Notes under the pieces: model-generated
Databases searched by the model: none
What the model was told of the DNA's origin: nothing
The model's input: only the letters and a program-made list of their open reading frames with translations
Program-made: the position numbers and the translations under genes
Shown here: positions 9,100-64,000 of the stretch, one piece after another
Position numbering within the stretch: the stretch's first letter is position 1
Layout of the letters: every line of letters starts with the position of its first letter
NCBI GenBank assembly: GCA_013001685.1
Contig: JABDMD010000005.1
Location: forward strand, 9,772-73,771
Origin: Gammaproteobacteria bacterium
Lineage (GTDB): Bacteria; Pseudomonadota; Gammaproteobacteria; UBA4575
DNA: 64,000 bases
Direction: 5' to 3'

Positions 9100-9130
9100 T
9101 ATTTCCGCTTTTGGCCAATAGCAGTCATTA
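9100..9130. repeat. Palindromic repeat copy A (ttccgcttttggccaatagcagtcatt)
   Basis: Matches the family consensus GTCCGCTTTTGGCCAAAAGCGGAC and shares the 3' flank tcattNNtaagt with copy B. Confidence 0.7.
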
Positions 9131-9408
9131 GTAGGTTAAGTAAACTATAGAAACATAGTAATTCTTGAACTTACAATCAATGATTATAATAAATTGTACT
9201 TACTATTTTTATAGAATGATTGTTCGCCTTTATTATTAAATTGAACTTATTGATCGATAAGGATTATCTAATTTATTAAATAATTATTAATGTTGCTTAT
9301 TTCGGAAATTATTTTATTTCATTTCCACAATCATAGTCATAGCAGTAATGTTCTCATGAAAGAGCAAGAAGTACTCTTAAACTCCTATATTTAGGCAAAC
9401 AGAGTAAA

Positions 9409-9612
9409 ATGCAAAAAATTGATAAAGCTAATTCTTATATTTTAGATTTTCGAGAAAAAGAAGATAGGCGATCTTTTGGGCCGTCACCACAATTTCCCGT
9501 CTTCGATGATGCATGCACATTAGTAATTAAAGATCGGCGCTTTATACCTGATCGACGCATTGCGAATATCCAGGTCAGAGGGCATTTTTTACATATCAAA
9601 AGAAGTTACTAA
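9409..9612 (+). CDS. Small hypothetical protein (67 aa)
   Basis: An ORF lying alone in a 1.1-kb intergenic region. A degenerate copy of the palindromic repeat lies 31 bp after its stop, the same ORF-then-repeat arrangement seen in the 58-64 kb island. Confidence 0.2.
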   Translation: MQKIDKANSYILDFREKEDRRSFGPSPQFPVFDDACTLVIKDRRFIPDRRIANIQVRGHFLHIKRSY

Positions 9613-9642
9613 CAATACATTTCATAATTCTTTATATGTATA

Positions 9643-9672
9643 TGTCCGCTTTGGTTCGTTAGCAAACATTAT
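9643..9672. repeat. Degenerate palindromic repeat copy (gtccgctttggttcgttagcaaaca)
   Basis: The left arm and centre match the family. The right arm is mutated (GG to AA). Confidence 0.45.
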
Positions 9673-49884: not shown

Positions 49885-50334
49885 AGTGAGTTCCAGTTTT
49901 ATTCAGCTAATCGTTTTGTATCGGTTCTTCATTAAACCGGGGCTGAAATATGCCCTAATCTTGATAGAAATAGTACATTTCATTCTGAGTAGAATAGAGC
50001 TTTAGCAGTACAAAACTGCCAAGAAATCGAGACATCGAACACATAATTGCCAATATCATTAGATTTTCTACTCACCTAATAGTATATGTATACGAATATA
50101 TACTGTGGCCCGAAAGCGCAACCAAGCTTATGCCTACCCAAAGTTAGAGCATAACTTTGCGATAAGTAGGCTTCATTAGATCGATATTGAGTTTATATAT
50201 ATTGATAAACCTTACCAGCAAATTTGTAGTCAGCCCATTAATCAAAAAGCAATGCTTTAGCACATAAGCTATAGGATGATTTTTAATGCTGAAATGCTGA
50301 ATTGAAAAATGTCTAAATATAAATTGAAATCAAT

Positions 50335-51231
50335 TTATACAGTATTGCTCTCTTGACTAAGGCGTGTAATTGATTCAATTACATCATTTGCATTACTAAT
50401 ACGATCTTTTGGCCGCTTAGCTAACATCCTCTCAATTAATGGCTGTATGTGCCTATATTCATATGGAAGCTGAGGTATCGGATCTCGCACATGTGCGAAT
50501 AATACAGAAACAACATCTTTTCTTGTATAAGGCGCTGTACCACTATCAAAAGGAGGTTTACCTGTAAGCATTTCAAAAAATACGATACCGAGAGAATAAA
50601 TATCAGAGCTAGGTCCAATAGGACTTGAACGGATGAGGTCTGGACTCATATAACGTGGTGTACCTTGACTAGACTTACTTGTAATTTCGGTGCGATGTTC
50701 AAGTTCATCTGCAATTCCAAAATCAGAAAGTACTGCAGAATTTTCATCTCTAAATAAAATATTTTCGGGCTTGATGTCGCGGTGAACAAATCCATGTTCA
50801 TGTGAGAAAGCCAGTGCTGATGATATCTGTTTCATAACATCATAAACCCAATCTAATTCCAGTTTGTTTTTTAGATGTCTGCGCAGGTTTCCCCAAGGCA
50901 TATATTCCATTGAAATATAGTGGTAGTCATCTACCACCCCTACATCATGAATGGGAACAATATTAGGATGCGAAAGGTTAGCATTAATACGACCTTCTTG
51001 TATAAAATGGCTTATACGTTCCTCGTCATCTAATATTGACGCATGCGTAATCTTTAACGCGATTTGGCGATATAACGATTTTTGAATTGCAACGTATACT
51101 TTCGCGGTTGCACCACTCCCGCAAAAGCCAACAACTTCATAGCCAGGTATATCTAAGCTAAATGAATGTTCTGAAATTGCCTGAGCCGCTTCTACATTTA
51201 GATCAAACGTTAAATCTTGCACGTGTGTCAC
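50335..51231 (-). CDS. Hanks-type serine/threonine protein kinase (cytoplasmic, kinase domain only)
   Basis: ATP-binding loop GSGATAKVY...ALK, catalytic loop HRDIKPENILF, DFG, and a P+1 loop GTPRYMSPD. Confidence 0.8.
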   Translation of the reverse strand: MTHVQDLTFDLNVEAAQAISEHSFSLDIPGYEVVGFCGSGATAKVYVAIQKSLYRQIALKITHASILDDEERISHFIQEGRINANLSHPNIVPIHDVGVVDDYHYISMEYMPWGNLRRHLKNKLELDWVYDVMKQISSALAFSHEHGFVHRDIKPENILFRDENSAVLSDFGIADELEHRTEITSKSSQGTPRYMSPDLIRSSPIGPSSDIYSLGIVFFEMLTGKPPFDSGTAPYTRKDVVSVLFAHVRDPIPQLPYEYRHIQPLIERMLAKRPKDRISNANDVIESITRLSQESNTV

Positions 51232-51327
51232 TTGATTATCGTCAATTTATGGTCTCAGCTTAACAATATACATGCATCATTTGTAGTGCTATTAGTATAA
51301 AAACCAGACATTAAATTGACTTAATCA

Positions 51328-54207
51328 TTACTGTACAAATGCGGCAACACCAAGTGAATTCATACATTCGAGCAATTCGTCGTCGTCATAAGGTTTAGTG
51401 ATATATGCAGATATTCCGATGCGTTCTGCTTCTTTCACATGTTTATCTGACGATTTTGAAGTAATCATTATAATTGGTATAGATGCCGTTTCATTGTTAG
51501 ACCGTAGATGATTAGAAAGCTCCAAACCATTCATTCTTGGCATTTCTAAATCAGTTAAAACAACACTTGGTGTCTGAAGTTGAATCTGGTTTATAGCCTC
51601 TACTCCGTCTTTTGCTGTAAACACAGCAAAACCAAGATCCTTCATAAATTGCTCGAGAGATTTACGTGTACTTATTGAGTCTTCCACAATTAGAGCAAGT
51701 GGAAGATCCTCTTGTAATTTTTCTAATTTTTCACTTTCAATGTATGTCCTATCAGACATATTTGAATTTTTTAATAACTCAACAATATCAATTACCGTTG
51801 TAACACTGCCATCACCCAGTATTGTTGAACCAAGTAGTCCCAATATTTTTGGAATAAACTTACTTAATGGCTTAGTAACAATATCTCTAGTATCAAATAT
51901 TTCATCTATCGTAACCGCAATTTTTTTATTTAGATCATCATTAATTAGCAATGTTACTTTTTGTTGCTCAAACGAATTATCCGCTGTTTTCGCTAGTAAA
52001 AATTGCAAATCAAATACTGGATATCTACGCTGCATATACTCAAAATACATCTTTCCAGAATCTGAAATAAAATCACCAGCACCAGCATACAAGATTTCAT
52101 CAACCCCTCTGTTTGATAACGCAACAGTAATATCCGCGCATCGCACTATGAGTGCATGCACTGAATTAATAGTAGTGGGTATTATTACTTCAACTCTAAC
52201 ACCATTATCTTTATTGGTATCTATAGCTACAGACCCTTTCATTTCAAGTACTTTTGTATGAACAGCAGCCAATCCAACACCTCGCCCAGACAATTGAGAT
52301 ACTTTGTCCTTAGTTGAAAAACCATGCTCAAGAATAATTTGAATTGCACGGTCATTAGTAAGTTTTTCATCTGCGTGTAAATATTCTTTTGCGATTGCTT
52401 TTGATTTAATAAGATTAAAATCAAGGCCACCACCATCGTCCTGACAAACAACACGAATAAGACCTCCTTCTTTTTTGAAACTGAGTTGTACTCTACCTTC
52501 AGAACTCTTTTTAAACTTTAATCTTTGCTCAGGCGTTTCTATCCCATGATCAACCGCATTCCGAATTATGTGCATTAATGGATCAACGAGCTGATGAATA
52601 AATTCACTATCAATAAGAGTATCTTCACCTGAAATTTCTAAACTAACGCGCTTGCCTGATTGCTTGCACGCCTGCCTTAGTGCACGTCTTAATCGCGGCA
52701 CAATACTCTGCACTGGTATCATACGAATTCGTGAAACTGCAGTTTGATTTTCATGCAAATTTCGTAATTGACTTAAGGACAACCTTTCAAGCTTGAATAG
52801 TGATTCTTCAATTTCACTTGAATATTCAACCGAATCATCTGAGCTTTCCATTAATTGATTCGTTAACGTATGCAATTCACTAAACTGCTCCATTTCTAAA
52901 GAATCAAATTCACTATCTTTAGAAATACTTTGCATAGAAAATGAAAAACCACGTACTCCAATCAAGCTTTCCAATTCTTGAGAAAGCATTTTAATTTTTT
53001 TGTTACTTGAACTTAAGTGCTGAATAGATGATTGAAGATTAAAAACTAACTCTTTAATTTGCTCATTAGATATGATGTTTTCACCTGCGCGCTTTAATAA
53101 GTCATCTGCCAAACTAACTGGAATTCGCAGAAATGGGTCTGCTGTAGTTTCTGCATGCCTTATATTAAGATCTTTTTTCTGGCTAGACAGAACTTGCTTT
53201 GATATATCATGTGAGCTTGGAGTGATTTTATTTTCTTTACTCTCGAGTTGTCTAATTACGCCAGAGCTGTCTATCTTATTAGCCCAATCTAAAATTTCCT
53301 GGAGTATTAATTCAGATTGCTCAGGATATGGCCCAAGATCTTCTAAATATTCTGACATTTCCTCTAAACAATCTGCAGCATTTTGAATTGCACTATGGAG
53401 TGATTCTGATGGTTTCGTCTTAGCTTTTAATAATGCCGCAAATATGTCCTCAAGGTGGTGCGTCAGACTTACAATCCCTTGAATCCCTACAGTATTTCCA
53501 GCACCTTTAAGCGTGTGTGTAGTACGGCCAGCAATCTCAAGCTGCTTAAGAAAATCATCACTTTGTAAACTTTGTACTGCTCTTGATAATTCTTCTGTCT
53601 GCCTAGGTAAATCAAGCATTAAGCTATTAAATAAATCCGAATTAATTTCTTCAGATATTTTAAGACTTACAAGCTCTGGAGTAGCTTTACTTATATGCTC
53701 TGGTGTTTCGCCATGATCAATTTCAATTTTAGAAATTAGAAATAATGACTCTAGTTTATCTAGTTCATGCTTATCTAATCTGACAGGCCAATAATTCTGA
53801 TCAAGATAGTCTAAAATGGATTGTATACACTCAGAATTGTATGGTGCCAATAAATAAGTATGAATAACATCAGGCCAATACAGTATTTTTGACCGTAATG
53901 AAATAAAATCTTTGAGTTGATTTTCCTGAATATGTTGAAGATTTTTTCGTATACTTAAACAAAAATAATGCAGCCCTCGCAATCCAATCATTTCTGCTGC
54001 AGACCCAATCCTACTGGTATGAAAAATCTGTAAGTCTATAATATCTTCTAATTGTTTATCATCCATCCCTCGCTTATCAAGCTCAGAGAACAACTCTGCT
54101 TGCAGTTCGAGTAAATCAGAAACTTCGCTTTTAATTAAATCAATTAACTCTTGTTGCTCGCTCGTGAGCTCACTCAATGACGGATTCATATCAGTATTTA
54201 TTTGCAT
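51328..54207 (-). CDS. ChpA-like hybrid CheA histidine kinase (Hpt - dimerisation/HATPase - CheW-like - C-terminal receiver)
   Basis: Hpt motif HTLKGAGNTVG, HATPase (DDGGGLD, GRGVGL), a CheW-like domain and a C-terminal REC (LIVEDSISTRK...DLEMPRMNG...KP). Confidence 0.85.
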   Translation of the reverse strand: MQINTDMNPSLSELTSEQQELIDLIKSEVSDLLELQAELFSELDKRGMDDKQLEDIIDLQIFHTSRIGSAAEMIGLRGLHYFCLSIRKNLQHIQENQLKDFISLRSKILYWPDVIHTYLLAPYNSECIQSILDYLDQNYWPVRLDKHELDKLESLFLISKIEIDHGETPEHISKATPELVSLKISEEINSDLFNSLMLDLPRQTEELSRAVQSLQSDDFLKQLEIAGRTTHTLKGAGNTVGIQGIVSLTHHLEDIFAALLKAKTKPSESLHSAIQNAADCLEEMSEYLEDLGPYPEQSELILQEILDWANKIDSSGVIRQLESKENKITPSSHDISKQVLSSQKKDLNIRHAETTADPFLRIPVSLADDLLKRAGENIISNEQIKELVFNLQSSIQHLSSSNKKIKMLSQELESLIGVRGFSFSMQSISKDSEFDSLEMEQFSELHTLTNQLMESSDDSVEYSSEIEESLFKLERLSLSQLRNLHENQTAVSRIRMIPVQSIVPRLRRALRQACKQSGKRVSLEISGEDTLIDSEFIHQLVDPLMHIIRNAVDHGIETPEQRLKFKKSSEGRVQLSFKKEGGLIRVVCQDDGGGLDFNLIKSKAIAKEYLHADEKLTNDRAIQIILEHGFSTKDKVSQLSGRGVGLAAVHTKVLEMKGSVAIDTNKDNGVRVEVIIPTTINSVHALIVRCADITVALSNRGVDEILYAGAGDFISDSGKMYFEYMQRRYPVFDLQFLLAKTADNSFEQQKVTLLINDDLNKKIAVTIDEIFDTRDIVTKPLSKFIPKILGLLGSTILGDGSVTTVIDIVELLKNSNMSDRTYIESEKLEKLQEDLPLALIVEDSISTRKSLEQFMKDLGFAVFTAKDGVEAINQIQLQTPSVVLTDLEMPRMNGLELSNHLRSNNETASIPIIMITSKSSDKHVKEAERIGISAYITKPYDDDELLECMNSLGVAAFVQ

Positions 54208-54254
54208 TAAATAGGCTACATATTCGCATTGAAATATATATCCATATGAATAAT

Positions 54255-56552
54255 CTATGCGCTCTCTAGCTCCGCGAGTTTGTCACGAATTACAGTGCTT
54301 TTACTGCTAATTTTAGAAGTAGTAAGACCCTTAACACCTTTGTTCTCATCCAATTGTGATTTAGTTTGTTTTTGCTGCTCCTGCTGAATCGCAGGGAGCT
54401 TAAAGATACCAACAGTTGTCAGTAACATATTTGAGTACCTAACTAAGTTGTTGGCATTTGTCATTTGCTGATGCAAATGCTCATCTGTTTTTCGTGTACT
54501 CTCTACAATCTCGTTAGATTTTTCTACTAACTGCAAATTTTCTTGTGCTTGTGCTTTTGAACTCTCAGTAATTTGAATTACAGCCTTAACAAGATCCTCA
54601 GTGGACTCTTTTGTTTGTTTCATGGCGTCACCGGCTTGTTCAGCGAGCGTAGTGCCTTCTGCCACTTGACTAATGACAGTATTCATTGCAGTTGCTGTGT
54701 CTTTTGTTTCGATACGAATATTACTAACTAATGAGTCTATTTCTGTTGTTGCTTCTCGCGCACTCTCAGCTAAGCGCTGAACTTCATCAGCAACTACTGC
54801 AAATCCACGACCAGCCTCACCTGCTGAAGCAGCATGCATACTGGCGTTCAACGCCAATATATGCGTACGCTCTGCAATACTATTAATTAAATTAACCACA
54901 CCCGTGATCTCTTGTGACCGCTCACCCAATCTTTTAATACGCTTCTCGGTTTCTTTAATAGTATCGCGAATGCTATTAATTCCTTCTACAGAGCGGTTAA
55001 CAGTATCCAATGCTGTTTGTGTGTTATTCAGGGCATTATCTGCGCGTTTATTAGCATCTATCGCATCCCATGAAATTTTACTCATTGCTTCGGAAGATTC
55101 TTTAAGCTCTTGCATAATATTTTCTGCTTGATGCCGTTCTTTTTCCGCAACAGCCATTACAAACTTAGATTGACGCTGTACGCGATTAGATTCAACCACT
55201 ACCCGTACTGAAATTTCTTTTACATCACTTAAAGCAGTAGCTGTTTCTTTAGTTAGCAGATTTAATGAGTCCCCTAATGCACCTGTTACATCCTCAAAAA
55301 TTGGAGCTTTAATCGTAAAGTCTTTTTTACTTAACTGAGCTACAGAATTCAGTAAAGATATTACTGAATCATTCAACTGCTCATTATTTTTTTCTGTAAC
55401 TGAAAGTTGTGTTACTTTTTCATCTAGCAGTTTATCGAATGCGCTCGATAACTCGCCCAACTCATCTTTTCGATTTAATTCTGTTCTTACTTCCAAGTTA
55501 CCTTCGTTTACATCATGAATTGCGTTTACAAGTGAATTAATAGGTTTTGTTATGGTATAACCAAACAAATACAACAAAAATGAAATCAGACCTGCTATCG
55601 CTATTAAGGATAAAAGCACAACCCAGGTAACTGCGTTAGTTGTTTTTTCTTGTGTAGATTGATTTTGCAAAATGCTCAATACTGAAGACTGCCCCATCTC
55701 ATCAAACATCGGGCCAAGCATGAAATCATACAATTCCGTGTATTCATTTGCATTGCGCTTATTATCAACAATATCATCGATTGTGCTAATATAATTAGCC
55801 ATATAGTTTTCTATGATTGGCTTATCATTATCAGATATGAAATCAGAGCCACTTAATATTGCATCAAATTTTTGATATTGATGTTTTAAATCTTCAAATG
55901 ATTCAGTCAAATCTATTGATTGCAATATATGTTTTTCATGGGCTCTAATTTTTGCAAGTACTGTAAATAAATTTGAGTTAGTCGCATTCCCTATTCCACT
56001 TTCAATATGTCCAAGAAGTAAGTTAGCTTTTTGACGCAACCCTTCAGCATCAGTAAAACCTACCAATTTATTAAACTTCACAATATCTGAAAAGGATGCT
56101 TTGTAATCATTTACTACAGCAGAGGCCTGAGCTACCAATTGTGATGAGTACTCAATGGGTAAAGCGACATCACCAATAACTATTTCGTCAGCTGCAATTG
56201 AATCAATCTCAACACTCAAAGCGCGAAGTTGCTCCATATTTTCTTCTAGTAACTGCACATGCTTTGAATGCTCATCAAGAGGAGCATTGTTGTAGGTCTG
56301 GCCAGTAGATGCAGAAATACTTAATAGAAAATCTTTCTCATACCGCCTTACTTTGAAGTAGTTTTTTTGTGCATCACTTACTAGTTGTCCGTATTTGATA
56401 AATAAATTAGATCTCTCAGTTGCCTCACGCTCATTTTTAATTACAAACCAATACGTCAAGGCAATTGCAATAAAACCTAAAGTAACGGCTATAAATAGAA
56501 TAGCAAGTTTATTTGTAATCTTAATGTCTAATAACTTATTCAAATAAGCCAT
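54255..56552 (-). CDS. Methyl-accepting chemotaxis protein with a large periplasmic sensor domain
   Basis: Two TM segments flank a periplasmic domain of about 280 aa. HAMP region. Highly conserved MCP signalling domain (ILALNASMHAASAGEAGRGFAVVADEVQRLAE). Confidence 0.85.
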   Translation of the reverse strand: MAYLNKLLDIKITNKLAILFIAVTLGFIAIALTYWFVIKNEREATERSNLFIKYGQLVSDAQKNYFKVRRYEKDFLLSISASTGQTYNNAPLDEHSKHVQLLEENMEQLRALSVEIDSIAADEIVIGDVALPIEYSSQLVAQASAVVNDYKASFSDIVKFNKLVGFTDAEGLRQKANLLLGHIESGIGNATNSNLFTVLAKIRAHEKHILQSIDLTESFEDLKHQYQKFDAILSGSDFISDNDKPIIENYMANYISTIDDIVDNKRNANEYTELYDFMLGPMFDEMGQSSVLSILQNQSTQEKTTNAVTWVVLLSLIAIAGLISFLLYLFGYTITKPINSLVNAIHDVNEGNLEVRTELNRKDELGELSSAFDKLLDEKVTQLSVTEKNNEQLNDSVISLLNSVAQLSKKDFTIKAPIFEDVTGALGDSLNLLTKETATALSDVKEISVRVVVESNRVQRQSKFVMAVAEKERHQAENIMQELKESSEAMSKISWDAIDANKRADNALNNTQTALDTVNRSVEGINSIRDTIKETEKRIKRLGERSQEITGVVNLINSIAERTHILALNASMHAASAGEAGRGFAVVADEVQRLAESAREATTEIDSLVSNIRIETKDTATAMNTVISQVAEGTTLAEQAGDAMKQTKESTEDLVKAVIQITESSKAQAQENLQLVEKSNEIVESTRKTDEHLHQQMTNANNLVRYSNMLLTTVGIFKLPAIQQEQQKQTKSQLDENKGVKGLTTSKISSKSTVIRDKLAELESA

Positions 56553-56587
56553 ATTTTTTTCCTTATTAAATTAGTTCAGCTGTTTAA

Positions 56588-57172
56588 CTAATTTGTAAAT
56601 GATTCAATAAAAAAAGGGAAATCAATGCACACCCATATTTTTCCGCCTTTCTTATATGCATGAGTAACAAAAGGTTGTACTATTTTTGGTAGCTTGGAGA
56701 AATTTTTTAAACGCTCTTTTTTCTTAAAATTAATAGGTGAAGGTAACTTAGTAAGTTGTATTCCTATAGCATTTTCATCTTTATCTAAAACTAGCGTTTT
56801 ATATTTACCTGCTTCAATTACGCTTTTTTCACCACTAATTATTTGCTCAAAATCAATCACAGGCACAATATCGCCACGGTGGTTACAGGCCCCAAGTAAC
56901 CAATTTGGTGAAAGTGGAATAGGATAAATGAGGTTGTCTTCAAGGATTTCGGAAGATAGCGATGCAGATAACAGCATATTTAAATTTCCAATAATAAATC
57001 CAAAATAACGTTCATCCGTAGAACTTTTATTTGTATCTGGAGTAAACTGATATTCTGCTTCGAGCTTCTTGATTAATTCTGCATGCTTTTCTAGCCAGCC
57101 AGTACGGGCACTTTTACTGTCAACTTCAGATGCAATCGACAAAACTGACAGGTCATCAGACTCTTTCATCAT
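56588..57172 (-). CDS. CheW-like coupling protein
   Basis: CheW domain with an N-terminal extension. Overlaps the upstream cheY-like gene by 4 bp. Confidence 0.75.
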   Translation of the reverse strand: MMKESDDLSVLSIASEVDSKSARTGWLEKHAELIKKLEAEYQFTPDTNKSSTDERYFGFIIGNLNMLLSASLSSEILEDNLIYPIPLSPNWLLGACNHRGDIVPVIDFEQIISGEKSVIEAGKYKTLVLDKDENAIGIQLTKLPSPINFKKKERLKNFSKLPKIVQPFVTHAYKKGGKIWVCIDFPFFIESFTN

Positions 57173-57531
57173 ATATATTTGTTTATTTCTGCAACAATTT
57201 GATCTGATGTGAAAGGTTTAGCAATTAATGCCTTACCACCTTGTAGCTCTGCCCAAACATAATCTGCTTTTTGATTTTTCGTTGTTACAAAAATAATAGG
57301 AATATTTTTTGTTTTTTTATCTGCAATAATTTCGCGACACGCCTGATAACCATCTTTTTTATCCATAATTATATCCATAAAAATTAAATCTGGACGCATA
57401 CTGTTAGCTTTTTCTATAGCCTCCTCGCCAGAAATAGCTGTTATTGCCTGATAACCTGCATCTAAAACAATCGTTTTTAGCTTTTCTAGATCTGGTTTAG
57501 AATCATCAACAATTAGAATTTTATTGTTCAT
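57169..57531 (-). CDS. CheY-like response regulator (PilG/PilH class)
   Basis: ILIVDDSKPD...DLIFMDIIMDKKDGYQ...VTTKNQKADYVWAELQGGKALIAKP, the same class as the pilH homologue at 1079-1444. Confidence 0.85.
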   Translation of the reverse strand: MNNKILIVDDSKPDLEKLKTIVLDAGYQAITAISGEEAIEKANSMRPDLIFMDIIMDKKDGYQACREIIADKKTKNIPIIFVTTKNQKADYVWAELQGGKALIAKPFTSDQIVAEINKYI

Positions 57532-58206: not shown

Positions 58207-58578
58207 TCACTTATATGTTCTTTTATTAGGAATCACATTTCTAACACCACCTTTGGGATCAGCAACATCTCCCGCATATCTAGGAATTAAATGAATGTGT
58301 GTGTGGGGCACTGATTGGCCAGCAACTTTGCTTACATTAATTCCAATATTATAAGAATCTGGCTTATGCTCATTATCAACCATTTGCTTGGCACGATGCA
58401 CGTTATCCCATAACTCTGCTATTTCTTCCTGAGTGCAATCAAAATAGTTCGGAACGTGCCTATTAGGAATGATGAGTAGGTGGCCGGGAGATGCTGGATA
58501 CTTATCTTGACTTATGAAAGTCAGCTCACCCTGATAGACAAGATCTACTCTTCTACAAAAAAGACAATCGGAAGACAT
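58207..58578 (-). CDS. HIT family hydrolase
   Basis: HIT motif HTHIHLIP. The start is at the internal Met MSSDCLFCRRV. The upstream 78 codons of the track ORF run through intergenic and repeat sequence. Confidence 0.7.
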   Translation of the reverse strand: MSSDCLFCRRVDLVYQGELTFISQDKYPASPGHLLIIPNRHVPNYFDCTQEEIAELWDNVHRAKQMVDNEHKPDSYNIGINVSKVAGQSVPHTHIHLIPRYAGDVADPKGGVRNVIPNKRTYK

Positions 58579-58848
58579 AAAAAGTAATATAAAATTTTTG
58601 AATAGTGGCCAGACGATTAAACTTGCCAGAAGCAAATAAGGACAACCGTAAGCTAGCCTGAAGGGTAAACTACATTGACGTAGTGAGCAATCAAACCGTC
58701 TACACGAGGATATGTATTCCTCGATCCAGTACCTGATAGCATCACTAGTAACTGTGAGTTGCAAATAAGTCGATAGCTTAAATTCTGTTTTCCACCTTAT
58801 TTCCACCAACTATTTGCAAGGTAAGTCATCAATCTTCTAGGCTTCAAA

Positions 58849-58880
58849 TGTCCGCTTTCGGCCAATAGCAGTCATTCATT
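58849..58880. repeat. Palindromic repeat copy B
   Basis: tgtccgctttcggccaatagcagtcattcatt. Begins 24 bp 3' of the ferritin-like gene. Confidence 0.75.
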
Positions 58881-58903
58881 AAGTATTAGATTATCTAAGC
58901 CAA

Positions 58904-59362
58904 TTAGCTTTTATAAGCAGCTATATCGCCAGGCTCACGAATCATTTTGTCTACTTCACTATGGTGCATCTCTTCACTAGCAATCATTTGTCGAGCATAT
59001 TCTTCTAGTACTACAGAGTGACCTTCAACTAAAGTCAATAATTTCTTGTATTTCTCCAATGCTGCACCTTCATGCTCTAACGATTCTCGCATAATATCTT
59101 TAATATCATGTTTATGCGTCTCTAATAATGGGCCGATTGCAAGTGAAGGGTGTTCCCCTAAGTGAGTGATCATTTCACCTGCTTGTCGTGCGTGCATCAA
59201 AGACTCGTCTGCTTGTGCATTCATCCACGAGACTATGGGGATACGGTTATAGCCAAATATCATCAATGCATAGTGGGTATAATGCACCACCCCTGCAAGT
59301 TCCGTCTCAAGAATTTCATTGAGTAGTGCTACTACGGGGGACTTATCAAAGTTCTCTTTCAT
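58904..59362 (-). CDS. Ferritin-like four-helix-bundle protein (bacterioferritin family-like)
   Basis: VVALLNEILETELAGVVHYTHYALM...LMHARQAGEMITHLGE pattern of the Bfr/Dps ferroxidase-centre helices. Confidence 0.55.
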   Translation of the reverse strand: MKENFDKSPVVALLNEILETELAGVVHYTHYALMIFGYNRIPIVSWMNAQADESLMHARQAGEMITHLGEHPSLAIGPLLETHKHDIKDIMRESLEHEGAALEKYKKLLTLVEGHSVVLEEYARQMIASEEMHHSEVDKMIREPGDIAAYKS

Positions 59363-59480
59363 TTTTCGTACTCTCATTTGTTTTGTTTGAGTTATTATAT
59401 TTTACTAAACCAGTCTTGCATAAACTACGCCCTATAATTGTTTAAAAGTTTCTAGCCTTTAAAAATCATCAATGTGGTTA

Positions 59481-59511
59481 TGTCCGCTTTCGGCCAATAG
59501 CGGTCAATCAA
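59481..59511. repeat. Palindromic repeat copy C
   Basis: tgtccgctttcggccaatagcggtcaatcaa. Begins 31 bp 3' of the DUF427 gene. Confidence 0.75.
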
Positions 59512-59541
59512 CATTTGATTATTTAATTTGGCTTAATACGA

Positions 59542-59823
59542 TTATTCAATTACCTCGACACCACGCCAGAAGGCAATATAATTTTCGATATTCTTTGCTT
59601 TGTCTTTTGCTTCTGGGTAATACCAGGCAGCATCTTCGTTTTCTTTTCCGTCTACATTAATCGTGTAGTAGCTCGCTTGCCCTTTCCAATAACATGTAGT
59701 GTGTTTTCTACTTTTTTCCAAAAATTCATAGTTAACCGACTCAGGAGGAAAATAGTAGAAAGTATCAATTACAATCGTCTCATCACTCTCTGCAATGACT
59801 TTATTGTTCCAAATTGCTTTCAT
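59542..59823 (-). CDS. DUF427 domain protein
   Basis: 93 aa (KVIAESDETIVIDTFYYFPPESV...CYWKGQASYY) matches the DUF427 pattern. Confidence 0.65.
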   Translation of the reverse strand: MKAIWNNKVIAESDETIVIDTFYYFPPESVNYEFLEKSRKHTTCYWKGQASYYTINVDGKENEDAAWYYPEAKDKAKNIENYIAFWRGVEVIE

Positions 59824-59848
59824 AATTTATATCTACTAAATTTTATAG

Positions 59849-59876
59849 CTCTCGACCAATAGCGGCCATTCAATAA
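59849..59876. repeat. Palindromic repeat copy D (left arm partly deleted)
   Basis: gctctcgaccaatagcggccattcaata. Confidence 0.55.
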
Positions 59877-59952
59877 AAACAAATTAGACTACTACCGAAG
59901 ATGTAATAAAAGGCAATCTGCTCCACTAGAAGCTTTGTAAAAATTGTCGTTG

Positions 59953-60192
59953 CTAATCTTCTTTTTCTAATTCTTTTCTATATTCTTCTTCTCTCTCTAT
60001 ATCAATTTTTGATTTTACTATGTAAATAACCACTGCTATCCAAGCAATAAACCATAAATAAAATTTCGTTGGATCAACTGTAGGTTTTTTATAATCCAAC
60101 AAAATGAAAATCATGGCAACTGCACTAAATGCTATAAGTGTTACTACATGGATTTTTATTACATAACCGATAATGCTCCATCTAATTTTCAT
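59953..60192 (-). CDS. Small hypothetical membrane protein (79 aa)
   Basis: Two predicted TM helices followed by a charged C-terminus. Confidence 0.3.
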   Translation of the reverse strand: MKIRWSIIGYVIKIHVVTLIAFSAVAMIFILLDYKKPTVDPTKFYLWFIAWIAVVIYIVKSKIDIEREEEYRKELEKED

Positions 60193-60320
60193 TTAGAGAT
60201 TATTCTCATATCTGACGCCTCTATGTGTTAATTGACTACTTCACAATAAAACCAGTGGATTTATCTATAAGCATTTCATCATTTTACTGAACACACTAAT
60301 AGCAGGCTGAAATCATGCGA

Positions 60321-60352
60321 GTGTCCACTTTGGGTCGTAAGCGGTCATTTAT
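60321..60352. repeat. Palindromic repeat copy E
   Basis: gtgtccactttgggtcgtaagcggtcatttat. Overlaps the stop codon of the CBS gene. Confidence 0.65.
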
Positions 60353-60768
60353 TAATTTTTTGGGAATTTTGTTTTTATATATTCACCGAAAAAGCGACAC
60401 GAATCTATAAATGTAAAAACACCGGCCAATTTTTGATGCTTGGTAATCACAGCAGCTCCTATGTGTTTATCTGCCATTGTTAACAAAACATTTTCAAGCG
60501 GTTCATTAATGTCAACAATATACGGTTTAGATATATAAACATGCCGAACCTCGAGGTTTTCATTAGCCCCTCTATCGAGCATTAACTTTTGTATTGCATC
60601 AATATCTTTTTGTGTGATTATTCCAAAAATCTCTTCACCACTCATCACGGGAAGGTGGTGGATATGGTGCTCTTCCATCATTTCTTTTGCTTTAGTTAAT
60701 GATGTTTCCAGTTTTACCGAGTACGGAAACGGAGTCATTGCAGCAGTAAGAGTTGGTATCTTTTTCAT
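60352..60768 (-). CDS. CBS domain pair protein
   Basis: 138 aa with two CBS motifs (HHLPVMSGEEIFGIITQKDI, GAAVITKHQKLAGVFTFIDS). Confidence 0.7.
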   Translation of the reverse strand: MKKIPTLTAAMTPFPYSVKLETSLTKAKEMMEEHHIHHLPVMSGEEIFGIITQKDIDAIQKLMLDRGANENLEVRHVYISKPYIVDINEPLENVLLTMADKHIGAAVITKHQKLAGVFTFIDSCRFFGEYIKTKFPKN

Positions 60769-60844
60769 TTGTTAAACTTTAATTAGTCTGTATTATTCAA
60801 TAAGTTTATATTCAATAATAATAGATTCTTAACTCTATTGTGAA

Positions 60845-60916
60845 TGTCCGCTTTTCGTAAATTAAAAAAAATAATAATTATCTTTAAATATGACCGCTTT
60901 TGGTCGAAAGTGGACA
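60845..60916. repeat. Composite site F: half-site tgtccgcttttcg, a 33-bp A/T-only spacer, then full copy tgaccgcttttggtcgaaagtggaca
   Basis: The half-site and the full palindrome are read directly from the sequence at 60845-60857 and 60891-60916. Confidence 0.6.
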
Positions 60917-61563
60917 TTTGGTTGTAATCACAAATCAAACTATCAGAATGTCTATTGTGAGAAATATTAAACATCATGTAAAGCAAGGCCGACACATTTA
61001 AAGAAATGGACGACCTTACGGTGGGAGGAGTTGGAAGTTGTTTAATGCTTTTATATTAATTAAATATTGCGAGAGATAATTTCCTCTTTTGTCTAGTTTA
61101 TCAAGTGTATGACTTGGTTAATTATGTAAACACTATTAGCATCGCACCAAGTGTTACGGAAATAGCTACAGTTAATATGCCCACCTCTTTCCATAAAGTG
61201 CATTCAAAGCATTGATCTTTGTTCATAGTGTCATTATCCTTTTTAATAGTTAAGTAAATTATAGAGTTCATATATAAATATTATTCATAATTGAAATTCT
61301 AGGTTATAAAATTTATTGGAAGTATATTATGTGCTTCCATGCTACTTATCAATTCGTATTAATTTGAATTATAGTTCGATTTTACCGAGCTTTTGGTTTG
61401 CGCTTTCGTATAAAAAACGAATTATTATCTGATGATAGATATACGGAAATTTCGTTTTGAATATATAGCAAATGAGAATATTTCTTATTTATGTTTAGAG
61501 CATGAAATACAGCACTTTATATTAGAGTATCCAGAATTTGCAGCTAGACGAGGATGATTGGAA

Positions 61564-61596
61564 CGTCCGCTATTGGCGAAAGCAGGCATTCATCAA
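61564..61596. repeat. Palindromic repeat copy G (degenerate)
   Basis: cgtccgctattggcgaaagcaggcattcatcaa. Confidence 0.5.
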
Positions 61597-61873
61597 CCCT
61601 GAGCAAAATCTATGGGATTACTAATTATGTCAAATACAAAAGCATATTATTTCAACTAACAATTCCAAGTTCAGCTTAATTCCTAATGTAATAATCAGTG
61701 AGTTATTTAGTCTATCTATATACTTAAGTGAACAGTTTCTCAGCATCAATTTCGACTTGCCTGTATAAAATAAGATTGAAGCGATAAATTATCTTTAAAC
61801 GCAGCTCATCACACTAGTATCTTAGTGTGGGCAACATCGTCCTAAATAATTCGCGTTGCTAAAGGAGTAGCAC

Positions 61874-62503
61874 ATGGAGGTCTTTTTCAAATTAGTCACA
61901 GAACTTATTCAGACTACTAAAGCTTTTTGGATGGTGCTATTAGGAGCCGGTATTGCAATATTTGCTAATAATAGAACAACAAAACTCGCTAATGATGGTT
62001 TTTTACGAGAAAGAAAAAAACAACGATATGATGAAACCAACAGAGAAAAGATTAACGCGCTAAAACAACTATATGAATTAATCCAGGAAGCCACCTCACT
62101 TTACAGTGTATATATGGCTAGAGTGAAATTTAATATAACACGCAAACAAAGAAATTCGTTGTCCGATGATGCAGAAAATATAAGGCTAAAGATAATAGAA
62201 AAATTTAGCAAAGCCTCTATGTTGGTGCAGTTTTATGCTATTGAAAAAAGTATAGCCTTTGATCATTATCAGCGCGCGGTGATAAAAGGGCTTAGATTAT
62301 GGGATGCATACCAATTAGCTGAAGTTAAAAACGATAATTATCTACATAGATTAAGCAAAGCCCACTTAGAATTAATCAACAAAAATCGTAGCAAGGTCAT
62401 GCAGTATGAAGCGGACCTAGCATTGCGTATAGGAAGTTCGGGAAGAAAAATTATTAATCAAAGTAACCTCTACGAGGATGTTTTAGAAGAACTTGATTTG
62501 TAA
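61874..62503 (+). CDS. Hypothetical protein (209 aa)
   Basis: ORF with an N-terminal TM segment. A repeat copy lies 39 bp after its stop. Confidence 0.4.
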   Translation: MEVFFKLVTELIQTTKAFWMVLLGAGIAIFANNRTTKLANDGFLRERKKQRYDETNREKINALKQLYELIQEATSLYSVYMARVKFNITRKQRNSLSDDAENIRLKIIEKFSKASMLVQFYAIEKSIAFDHYQRAVIKGLRLWDAYQLAEVKNDNYLHRLSKAHLELINKNRSKVMQYEADLALRIGSSGRKIINQSNLYEDVLEELDL

Positions 62504-62542
62504 TCTGTTAGATCATACTTATTCTTACATATATCTAATGTC

Positions 62543-62568
62543 CGCTATTAGCCGAAAGCAGACAAAAA
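62543..62568. repeat. Palindromic repeat copy H
   Basis: tgtccgctattagccgaaagcagaca. Lies 39 bp after the stop of 61874-62503 and 11 bp before the next start. Confidence 0.65.
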
Positions 62569-62579
62569 TTCGCACTTAA

Positions 62580-62894
62580 ATGATTCACATAATTTTACAT
62601 TTTTTGGTTCCAGCACTAGTAGCTCGAATTTTCTTTCGAAGGCACTGGGGAAACGCATGTTTTATAATGGTCGCGACAATGCTCGTTGATCTCGATCACT
62701 TAATTGCAAGCCCCATATATAATCCTGATTGCTGTAGCATTGGTTTTCACCCGCTACATCAACCATGGTTCGTAGTATTGTATTTTATACTTTGTTTTGT
62801 ACCTAAGACCCGGCTTATAGGTCTCGGGTTGTCTATTCATATGAGTCTAGATGCTATTAATTGCCAAGTGACAAATGGTGTGTGGATAAATTAA
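62580..62894 (+). CDS. Small hypothetical protein, DUF6122-like
   Basis: 104 aa (MIHIILHFLVPALVARIFF...DLDHL) resembles the DUF6122 family. Confidence 0.45.
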   Translation: MIHIILHFLVPALVARIFFRRHWGNACFIMVATMLVDLDHLIASPIYNPDCCSIGFHPLHQPWFVVLYFILCFVPKTRLIGLGLSIHMSLDAINCQVTNGVWIN

Positions 62895-62935
62895 AATTTA
62901 ATTAACAAGAGCACATAAAAATGCAAGTAGTTATT

Positions 62936-62961
62936 GTCCGCTTATGGCCAAAAGCAGACAC
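62936..62961. repeat. Palindromic repeat copy I (near-perfect 24-bp palindrome)
   Basis: tgtccgcttatggccaaaagcagaca. Confidence 0.75.
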
Positions 62962-63021
62962 TATGTTGGAACTAAGTTAGATTTATCGTTGAATTTACAA
63001 TCACTGCTCAACGTAGGCACT

Positions 63022-63183
63022 TATGAATACAGAGACTCAGCTATTAGTGTATTTAATATTATTACTTTTCGTTGATACTATATTGCCATTACCTATTACT
63101 GCGGCAATTTTACTATATGTGGTGTTAAAAAGACCCGTATGGTTTAGAGAGCTGTACCATCAAGTATATAAATCGTCCACATA
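63022..63183 (+). CDS. Small hydrophobic protein (53 aa), not in the ORF track
   Basis: ATG at 63022 and TAA at 63181-63183. One TM helix. A repeat copy begins 10 bp after the stop. Confidence 0.25.
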
Positions 63184-63193
63184 ATACACATAC

Positions 63194-63220
63194 AGTGACC
63201 GCTAACGACCCAAAGCGGAT
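63194..63220. repeat. Palindromic repeat copy J (divergent centre)
   Basis: gtgaccgctaacgacccaaagcggata. Confidence 0.5.
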
Positions 63221-63428
63221 ATTCAACGACTAAGCTTATCTGCTATGTCTCGCTTGAATGAAAAATAAAATAAAATTGGGTTACTTTGGCAGGACTGTTT
63301 AGCTCTTCATCGATTGTCAGAATCATTTATTCTATTCATATGTAAAACTTCATATGTTTCTCTTGAACTAGCTATGCGCTTACTCATTTTACAACGAGCG
63401 CATATATATATTAGGCGATGACAAGGAA

Positions 63429-63686
63429 GTGTTCATGAAAGCTGATCTTATAAAATATAAAGACTATACAATTCTGTTTAATGCCCATGAGATAAAGTCT
63501 GGGTCATTTTGTCCTGTCGCAATGCTTTTCAAGTCGGGGAAGAAAGCAGTTACGTTAGATATTAAAAGGACGTTTGCAGAAAGAGGTCAAGCGCTCTCAT
63601 TTGCATTGAATGCTGCGGAAGCGACTGTAGATGCAAAGCTTAAAGAAATGAAACCATATTTTGCTTCGGTTATAAGTGGGTGTTGA
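63429..63686 (+). CDS. Hypothetical protein (85 aa)
   Basis: ORF followed 43 bp later by a repeat copy. Confidence 0.35.
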   Translation: MFMKADLIKYKDYTILFNAHEIKSGSFCPVAMLFKSGKKAVTLDIKRTFAERGQALSFALNAAEATVDAKLKEMKPYFASVISGC

Positions 63687-63728
63687 ATCATTTGCATTCC
63701 ATGATGTAACCAATTCGCTCAAACTTTG

Positions 63729-63755
63729 AATGACCGCTTTTGGCCATAAGCGGAC
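63729..63755. repeat. Palindromic repeat copy K (near-perfect palindrome)
   Basis: atgaccgcttttggccataagcggaca. Confidence 0.75.
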
Positions 63756-63874
63756 AATTGTATCTTAGTAAAATGATAGTCAGTCTGTTTTTCGGAATGA
63801 AATACAGAATTGCTATTAAATATACTTTGCTATTCTTATAGATTAAGAGTACGTTGATTTTAGATTAGATCTTC

Positions 63875-64000
63875 CTAACCCGTTTCTTCCAGAGTTTCAT
63901 TTCTCCGCCAGTCATCGGCAATCACCTCTAATTCCTGATTTTTATGACGCAGTGTCATGAGAGCACTTAAATTTGTGCAAATAGATTGAACACCGGGAAT
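63875..64000 (-). CDS. C-terminal 41 codons of a gene entering from beyond the window end
   Basis: Reverse-strand frame open from 64000 to TAG at 63875-63877 (...ALMTLRHKNQELEVIADDWRRNETLEETG*). Confidence 0.2.
   Translation of the reverse strand: MPGVQSICTNLSALMTLRHKNQELEVIADDWRRNETLEETG

Follow-up and report, generated by a model that had tools for sequence, protein, structure and literature searches.

The 64,000-nucleotide stretch of a gammaproteobacterial genome of the UBA4575 lineage analysed here (GenBank assembly GCA_013001685.1, contig JABDMD010000005.1, positions 9,772 to 73,771; hereafter the window) contains at 58.2-63.8 kb an island of nine small genes, which are arranged in two opposed blocks, five on the minus strand and four on the plus strand. 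The island is probably an array of mobile gene cassettes, with site-specific recombination at a 28-bp site as their means of movement. One question then is which enzyme would move them. Since neither the window nor the contigs of its relatives encode a recombinase, the array is an orphan one, and the enzyme would either act in trans or have been lost. In other taxa, sites of this type lie beside the gene of a small tyrosine recombinase, which we give an even, or marginally better than even, chance of being the enzyme of the system. A cassette-shuffling system of this kind has apparently not been described before.

The site (Table 1) consists of a left arm ATGWCCGCT, a centre of 10 nucleotides (nt) and a right arm AGCGGWCAT. 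The island holds nine full copies together with one degenerate copy and one half-site, and two further sites (9101-9128 and 9642-9669) bracket a solo gene of 67 amino acids (aa), giving twelve sites in the window, all of them beside small accessory genes, and none in the remaining approximately 57 kb of core genes. A loose version of the pattern finds 26 strand-matches in the window as against 3.3 expected, and a strict version 3 as against 0. An earlier interpretation made from the letters of the window only (the sequence-only reading) had described the two opposed blocks, their repeats and the AT-rich gap between them (60769-61873; GC 0.30-0.32), with its half-site, full site and degenerate copy, accurately in all essentials. 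It had also placed a repeat behind each gene, which holds for all but the HIT gene, the other genes being followed by a copy of the site 3-60 nt past their stop codons.

The site has a direction. Read along the adjacent gene, its centre is ATTGGCCGAA-like or (T/A)ACGACCCAA-like, and the reverse complement of the GACCC type is never seen; for S8 and a few other GGCC-type centres the orientation is not assignable, because they are too symmetric. The usual arms in the window's lineage are ATGACCGCT on the left and AGCGGACAT on the right, which in a hairpin would pair with an A-A mismatch. S8 and S10 are 93% complementary. The head sequence TTTGGCCATAAGCGGACAAT is present in inverted orientation on either side of the 53-aa and 83-aa units, perhaps as a relic of a site-specific inversion or of a reversed insertion.

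The contigs of related strains (L001-L017), which were retrieved by exact-protein look-ups and whose shared DNA is 97-99.6% identical to the window at the nucleotide level, differ from it by whole units. When each locus is cut at its sites and the pieces are clustered (see the unit maps in Table 1), units are found to have been gained, lost or swapped between near-identical strains with the breakpoints in the sites, the alignment blocks ending at window positions 59511/59848, 60338, 62568 and 63223, all of them inside sites. For example, L003 and L004 are without window positions 59512-59847, the DUF427 unit, and the ends are joined site to site; this loss is precise, the B-C junction being composed of the left part of the B-F junction and the right part of the F-C junction. 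Likewise L009, which is 99.6% identical, parts from the window at 60338 and has other sequence instead of the 79-aa unit. Past the window end its next unit is an RRM_1 gene, followed by two small genes, and the array therefore continues beyond position 64000; further cassettes, with DUF7684 and DUF6980, are found in L011. The sequence-only reading had proposed that the island is cassette-like and hypervariable, with the repeats as boundaries of its units, and it had noted that the same genes in the same order in all relatives would speak for an ordinary chromosomal region. The proposal is borne out: gene content and order are not the same among the strains, insertions and deletions of units fall at the repeat boundaries, and the island is thus hypervariable unit by unit. 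It was also right in suspecting that the island may continue past the window, although the partial reverse-strand open reading frame (ORF) at 63875-64000 from which this had been suspected is itself only 48 aa long and probably spurious.

Where within the site the exchange takes place can be read from the 83-aa cassette. Six upstream partners of this cassette present four left-arm variants and a variable base at position 10, and its upstream junctions are constant from position 11 on (ACGACCCAA-AGCGGACAT). In its six downstream junctions the left arm TTTGAATGACCGCT is constant, and what follows it, centre and right arm, differs from one junction to the next. It is thus the upstream unit that owns the left arm and the downstream unit that owns the centre together with the right arm; the exchange point lies where left arm and centre meet, also when the two sites differ in their centres. 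A model of symmetric homologous exchange would leave the centre with the upstream unit about half of the time, and in the informative junctions this is never the case; as a rough estimate, the polar pattern observed would have a probability of about 1% or less under that model. Judged from these junctions, the pattern points to a fixed, polar crossover rather than to random homologous exchange.

Cassettes of the window also recur in other species. The 67-aa cassette is present in L133, where the homology begins exactly at the site and the upstream gene is a different one. Similarly, on a complete chromosome of 2.76 Mb (L035) six to seven cassettes follow one another, and among them is a CBS cassette that is 73% identical and has other neighbours. 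With respect to the solo cassette itself, the 67-aa gene encodes a DRRxxPDRR-like motif and is antisense to the polarity of its sites, and L133 has in addition a paralogous 71-aa gene after a site (1571-1786).

The site family as a whole is widespread. A search of species-representative genomes with the probe ATGWCYGCTNNYRRYCNNNAGYRGWCAT gave at least 118 loci (L018-L135), with a GC content of 38-69%. Among the matches listed are Pseudolabrys, other Hyphomicrobiales, Sphingomonas, Sulfitobacter, Betaproteobacteria, Lysobacter, Pseudoxanthomonas, Rhodanobacter, Dyella, Pseudomonas, Coxiellaceae and Thiotrichales, with isolated matches in other phyla. In the low-GC gammaproteobacterial loci the site again lies behind small genes, in arrays. 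Doublets of the same polarity are frequent, a GGCC-type centre being followed by a GACCC-type one (for example L114 1069-1141; L011 2325-2435 and 2758-2868; the J units of L003), and the spacing is 17 nt in Alphaproteobacteria and about 55 nt in the window's lineage, where the doublets form 'empty' units of 82-85 bp; in Pantoea a TCGCTCAT-type centre precedes a TGTGCCA-type one, and the order within the doublets is conserved across classes. In alphaproteobacterial loci (L049, L088, L114, L125 and others) the repeat is translated in spurious ORFs as MSAFDPKRT, MSALGQKRT or MSAFGGKADM-like peptides, and these ORFs cluster across genomes as 'hypothetical protein'. An incomplete search of the literature yielded no description of the site, of these peptides or of the system.

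Clustering of all ORFs of the at least 118 loci singled out one recombination enzyme, a protein of about 200-210 aa with the catalytic PF00589 domain only. Its best NCBIfam matches are XerA and XerC, far below the cut-offs; against integron-integrase models it scores 17-22 bits, where the cut-offs are at least 265, and against the invertase model 16-19 bits, where the cut-off is 222. The gene lies directly beside a site in L094, L067, L134 and L246, the carriers being one alpha-, one beta- and one gammaproteobacterial locus and one contig from a viral collection. In the betaproteobacterial metagenome-assembled genome (L134, 1814-2436) it is frameshifted into two overlapping ORFs, and is thus either a pseudogene or an assembly error. 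When the window and L001-L135 were searched by tblastn and with a hidden Markov model (HMM), the recombinase was found in L094, L067 and L134 only. The family is large, with more than 8000 relatives at E < 1e-30 and 420-446 plasmid records. This small family is not treated separately in a paper on the classification of tyrosine recombinases. A protein search that started from the integrase of lowest GC content returned Rhodospirillales-type relatives only and did not reach the Thiotrichales-like lineage, and a scan of viral contigs gave only 34 matches, mostly close to contig ends.

A metagenome scan with the recombinase protein added 80 loci (L136-L215). In most of 67 metagenome loci a conserved hairpin, GGGCAGAGCGGACATGCTCTGCCC, stands a few bases past the stop codon of the recombinase gene and contains the right-arm motif AGCGGACAT; a site-like element with the centre TTGTGCCA follows at about +42, and in many cases there is a further site 62-67 nt ahead of the start. 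Of the 200-nt flanks of the recombinase gene, 25% and 15% contain high-scoring sites, as against 2.9% of background windows. The GC-rich hairpin 3' of the gene (for example L146 1809-1830, L222 6607-6650 and L229 10589-10640), which contains or abuts AGCGGACAT and is followed by a half-site with the centre TGTGCCA, is found only beside the recombinase gene; it has no counterpart in the window. Within the recombinase module it may have an autoregulatory role or form a terminal site.

Complete plasmids show the association of sites and recombinase gene within arrays. In the Pseudoalteromonas spongiae plasmid (L227, NZ_CP023400.1, record 115-127 kb) six sites with the centre TTGTGCCA are present in 50 kb, only within about 10 kb around the recombinase gene, and each lies behind a small gene or gene pair. 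A special site is placed 64 nt upstream of the recombinase gene, from which the genes of the left-hand array are transcribed divergently. The region lies between traG and traN of a MOBH/MPF_F conjugative backbone, together with RecT/exonuclease-like genes. The placement may resemble that of a variable hotspot in SXT/R391-type elements. A block shared by E. coli IncY, Shigella, Klebsiella and Enterobacter plasmids has sites between betT, a DUF2254 gene, a hypothetical gene and the recombinase gene; the relB-betT-DUF2254-int block is identical in several Enterobacterial plasmids and shows no variation at the level of cassettes. Pantoea agglomerans pNBBC01-2 carries at least 12 sites of two centre types around the recombinase gene, often as doublets. 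In a megablast search of 6.2 kb of this plasmid against all plasmids, five modules are found separately elsewhere, the alignments ending at sites: a GNAT gene; GNAT together with the recombinase; the recombinase alone (about 35 records); another GNAT; and a diguanylate cyclase. The right-arm variants AGCGGAAGT, AGCGGACCT and AACAGACAT are module-specific and travel with the downstream module, whereas the left arms go with the upstream module. The plasmids and loci of more distant recombinases (pMOL30, Methylomonas, Microvirga, NGR234, Shewanella and two of Vibrio) have partial sites or none, and the association between site and recombinase is therefore not uniform across the protein family.

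In the mechanism that we propose, the site would be the core site for two recombinase monomers, with an 11-6-11 or 10-8-10 geometry. Read in gene orientation, a cassette would be composed of the centre and right arm, a short 5' region, one small gene (rarely two or three) and the left arm. Recombination between the two flanking sites would excise a circle with one reconstituted site, and in the reverse reaction the circle could be inserted at any site. A fixed exchange point between unlike centres argues for the exchange of one strand, which might be resolved by replication or by processing of the Holliday junction, as in recombination at integron attC sites or in XerC-only integration. The two arrays of opposite polarity in the window diverge from a conserved anchor unit of 1.65 kb.

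In a broader formulation, which we hold with somewhat less than even confidence, the island would belong to a second, integron-independent cassette system that has a wide distribution in Proteobacteria, plasmids of E. coli, Klebsiella, Shigella, Pantoea and marine bacteria included, and in which a tyrosine recombinase of about 200 aa with only the catalytic domain shuffles modules of one to few genes at 28-bp sites by polar exchange; the orphan arrays and the REP-like copies of Alphaproteobacteria would then be non-autonomous derivatives. Integrons and the dif modules of Acinetobacter are the textbook routes by which single genes are stockpiled and shuffled by site-specific recombination. The present data point to a further one, with its own short site and a minimal recombinase, which would extend from marine sulfur-cycle-type Gammaproteobacteria to clinical Enterobacterial plasmids. 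If so, a class of hypervariable small-gene islands and plasmid hotspots would have its explanation, as would the very common repeat behind the spurious hypothetical proteins of the MSAFDPKRT/MSALGQKRT type; annotators would gain a simple 28-nt marker of mobile modules, and genome engineers a compact pair of recombinase and site. It also makes testable the question of how a tyrosine recombinase exchanges sites with different central regions.

With respect to the remaining features of the island, the gap belongs to the anchor unit, which is kept in all strains and inside which the polarity of the sites flips. Annotators of related assemblies have called small ORFs of 49 and 41 aa in the gap, and a six-frame search of it revealed no remnant of a recombinase; a role as bidirectional control region or integration scar, suggested by the sequence-only reading, is speculative. 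The island has a lower GC content than the rest of the window (0.35 versus 0.39). At third codon positions, however, GC content (GC3) is no different in cassette genes (0.305) and core genes (0.317), so that the cassette pool is probably internal to the lineage. The idea that the cassettes are compositionally foreign was rejected on GC3 and codon composition. Scans of the cassette proteins for defence systems and NCBIfam families gave generic HIT and CBS matches only, a generic HIT match being the sole defence-system one; exact-protein look-ups returned no record for the DUF6122 and DUF427 proteins and nothing new for the 53-aa protein. The 200-aa ORF called for the HIT gene from 58809 is an over-extension from a TTG codon (58579-58809), the relatives' assemblies having a 123-aa product from 58578 that fits the HIT domain. 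All strains share the left flank of the island (50000-57531), which is made up of a chemotaxis-like cluster with genes for CheY-like, CheW, 765-aa methyl-accepting chemotaxis, CheA-like and Ser/Thr kinase proteins and of the BipA gene; annotations of the CheA-like product give 936 aa in L003 and 953-959 aa elsewhere.

Table 1. Genes, sites and unit order of the island and of the solo cassette (window coordinates; for sites the strand column gives polarity; letters in the unit maps denote clustered units)
Feature	Position	Strand	Remarks
HIT-family gene	58207-58578	minus	fixed flank in all strains; no site 3' of gene
Ferritin-like cassette gene (PF00210)	58904-59377	minus	
DUF427 cassette gene	59542-59823	minus	unit missing in L003/L004
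79-aa membrane-protein cassette gene	59953-60192	minus	other sequence at the same place in L009
CBS-pair cassette gene	60352-60768	minus	73%-identical copy between two sites in another species (L035)
209-aa membrane-anchored helical protein	61874-62503	plus	no family match; part of conserved anchor unit
DUF6122 cassette gene	62580-62894	plus	unit missing in L003/L004
53-aa membrane-peptide cassette gene	63023-63184	plus	
83-aa cassette gene, no function assigned	63435-63686	plus	83/85 aa, 63429-63686 in longer call; at least 6 upstream and at least 6 downstream contexts
S1	58848-58875	minus	between ferritin-like unit and fixed HIT flank; gene-oriented ATGACTGCT-ATTGGCCGAA-AGCGGACAT
S2	59480-59507	minus	DUF427/ferritin junction
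S3	59842-59869	minus	79-aa/DUF427 junction; one degenerate arm
S4	60321-60348	minus	directly past CBS stop codon; gene-oriented ATGACCGCT-TACGACCCAA-AGTGGACAC
Half-site	60844-60852		left-arm motif ATGTCCGCT alone
S5	60890-60917	minus	upstream of CBS; last site of minus polarity
Polarity-switch segment of anchor unit	60918-61562		GC 0.30; 49-aa ORF 61122-61271 on minus strand
S6, degenerate	61563-61589	plus	9-nt centre; head of 209-aa gene unit
S7	62538-62565	plus	past 209-aa gene; L003/L004 part from window at 62568
S8	62934-62961	ambiguous	past DUF6122; near-symmetric centre
S9	63195-63222	plus	past 53-aa gene, head of 83-aa cassette; L005 parts from window at 63223
S10	63730-63757	plus	past 83-aa gene; six different downstream partners in other contigs
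Solo cassette	9101-9669	minus	67-aa gene 9409-9612 (plus) between PyrK-like and pilT-like genes
Unit map, window			N-I-G-H-A-E-B-F-C-D
Unit map, L003			O-P-Q-K-L-J-R-J-A-E-B-C-D
Unit map, L004			S-M-K-L-J-A-E-B-C-D
Unit map, L005			T-M-U-G-H-A-E-B-F-C-D

Several observations weigh against an array of mobile cassettes, and they are best considered together with the rival that the sites are structural or regulatory palindromes similar to repetitive extragenic palindromes (REPs), the strains differing by homologous or illegitimate recombination or by differential deletion, with no dedicated recombinase and no mobility. The element is indeed short, palindromic and intergenic, and it is extremely abundant in Alphaproteobacteria; genomes of the Xanthobacteraceae type carry it as a very abundant REP-like repeat beside ordinary genes, in singlets and in doublets that often have 17 nt between the copies, which shows that it can proliferate without cargo. 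No recombinase was detected in the window, in its gap or in the same-lineage contigs (L001-L017) with the HMM of the small family, a model that a very divergent integrase could escape, and the precomputed Pfam tables of the flanking genes list none either; the sequence-only reading had advised looking past 64000 for such a gene, and the relatives' contigs L009 and L011 encode none. The link to the recombinase comes from other taxa, in which the centres of the sites are partly different. The unit orders are colinear across strains without any conflict of order, as would fit one long ancestral array with differential deletions, and a plain deletion between direct repeats with 14 nt in common could account for the missing DUF427 unit. 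Furthermore, the crossover was mapped mainly on one cassette and the Pantoea modules, with one or two junctions ambiguous, and the strain comparisons are mostly between metagenome assemblies, in which the assembly k-mer (k141 in the contig names) is nevertheless longer than the repeat; the anatomy is also no different in complete plasmids and in a complete chromosome.

Set against this, the REP-like alternative, which we consider unlikely, does not account for the polar junctions, in which the centre always goes with the downstream unit, nor for the same cassettes having different neighbours in other species and replicons. Classic REPs have a lineage-specific sequence and a head of the GTAG/GTGG type, whereas the present 28-mer lacks such a head and is common to Alpha-, Beta- and Gammaproteobacteria and to other phyla, being conserved across the whole range of GC content given above. 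Its hairpins are weak, the A-A arm mismatch is recurrent in the gammaproteobacterial lineage, and the plasmid sites cluster round the recombinase gene. There is, to be sure, some likeness to REPs and to the bacterial interspersed mosaic elements composed of them, in that both are short intergenic palindromes which occur as singlets or doublets and reach a high copy number in some genomes, and to the REP-associated tyrosine transposase (RAYT) genes, in that a presumed mobilising gene is flanked by inverted copies (L094, L136). But the linked enzyme is a PF00589 tyrosine recombinase and not an HUH transposase, and the elements bound and move genes; a RAYT-type HUH motif was not found by a crude regular expression in six-frame translations of the window and L001-L135 (approximately 0.9 Mb). 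The sequence-only reading had held in reserve an ordinary operon region decorated by REPs. The REP-like part of that suggestion has its counterpart in Alphaproteobacteria, while the ordinary operon region is contradicted by the indel variation.

Mobile cassettes are also favoured over a second rival, that of bidirectional terminators or of operators by which one regulator would co-control a stress regulon, which we regard as improbable. The dyad symmetry of the sites and their position just past the stop codons are what one would expect of such elements, and the HIT, ferritin-like and CBS genes could be stress-related. Yet the predicted single-stranded DNA hairpins are weak, at -1 to -6.5 kcal/mol and with folding z-scores mostly above -2; there is no T-tract, only 2 of 10 sites are flagged as terminators, and the terminator scan finds 5 where 3.4 are expected. 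A function as intrinsic terminators was ruled out by this background-level scan together with the folding. An Rfam scan of 57.5-64 kb found no family matching the repeats. The element therefore has the look of a duplex site for protein binding whose two half-sites differ slightly, rather than that of a terminator or a structured RNA. Moreover, this rival explains neither the breakpoints in the sites nor the spread of the 28-mer across classes.

The third rival, a sedentary chromosomal integron or a cluster of attC sites lacking an integrase (CALIN) with unusually short attC sites, a likeness to which the sequence-only reading had drawn attention, is highly improbable, for although single small, unrelated and co-oriented genes with one imperfect palindrome each and unit-wise variation are what such an array would show, the sites of 28-34 nt (attC being at least about 57 nt) have one arm pair and no RYYYAAC...GTTRRRY pair in attC order, the crossover lies past the left arm instead of at a G/TT at the 3' end, and a search of the window and of the relatives' contigs revealed no intI, the linked recombinase scoring far below the integron-integrase cut-offs. 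In rejecting the repeats themselves as attC sites, on account of their length and of the lack of attC boxes, the same reading was correct.

The likeness between the cassette array and integrons or CALINs is one of organisation: both are arrays of mostly single small genes, each with a site of its own, both gain and lose genes unit by unit, both have a fixed polar crossover implying a one-site circle, and in both there are orphan arrays that lack an integrase. The Pseudoalteromonas plasmid, with its divergent recombinase gene and a special site about 65 nt upstream of that gene, has an attI-like layout. The differences lie in the sites and in the enzyme. The attC sites are imperfect inverted repeats of 57-141 bp, with the order R''(RYYYAAC)-L''...L'-R'(GTTRRRY) and the crossover at G/TT. 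The island sites, in contrast, have a single arm pair round a 10-nt centre, are conserved in sequence rather than in structure, and possess neither R/L boxes nor evident extrahelical bases; the GTTGAAT/ATTCAAC-like flanks of some copies are in the wrong order and not conserved. Since the crossover lies past the left arm, on the gene-proximal (5') side, the larger part of the site is found at the head of a cassette and not at its 3' end. The linked enzyme is a catalytic-domain-only protein and not IntI, and the arrays, including solo cassettes, are scattered rather than collected on one platform.

The enzyme itself is reminiscent of the invertases FimB and FimE, which likewise have about 200 aa and no N-terminal core-binding domain, and some copies of the recombinase gene are flanked by inverted sites. 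However, the anatomy described here is one of cassette exchange and not that of a single invertible promoter segment, and the match to the invertase model is weak.

A further comparison is with the dif (pdif) modules of Acinetobacter plasmids and other XerCD-exploiting elements, which are small modules bounded by two-arm sites of 28 bp (PMC13141974, PMC7399989). In both systems modules are shuffled between replicons with the breakpoints at the sites, and single-strand exchange is plausible for both. The site ATGTCCGCTTT-TGACCC-AAAGCGGACAT reads as 11-6-11, like a dif-type site, the limits being deduced from its symmetry and from the position of the crossover. On inspection, its arms show no likeness to the dif consensus (for example the XerD arm TTATGTTAAAT). 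A broader arm pattern, ATGWCYGCT and AGCGGWCAT 10 nt apart, describes the sites of the window, of the other taxa and of the plasmids alike. Whereas dif modules alternate in inverted polarity, the sites of the window's arrays are in direct polarity, and whereas dif modules depend on the host XerCD, the system to which the island would belong has its own linked recombinase gene and is found on both chromosomes and plasmids in many classes.

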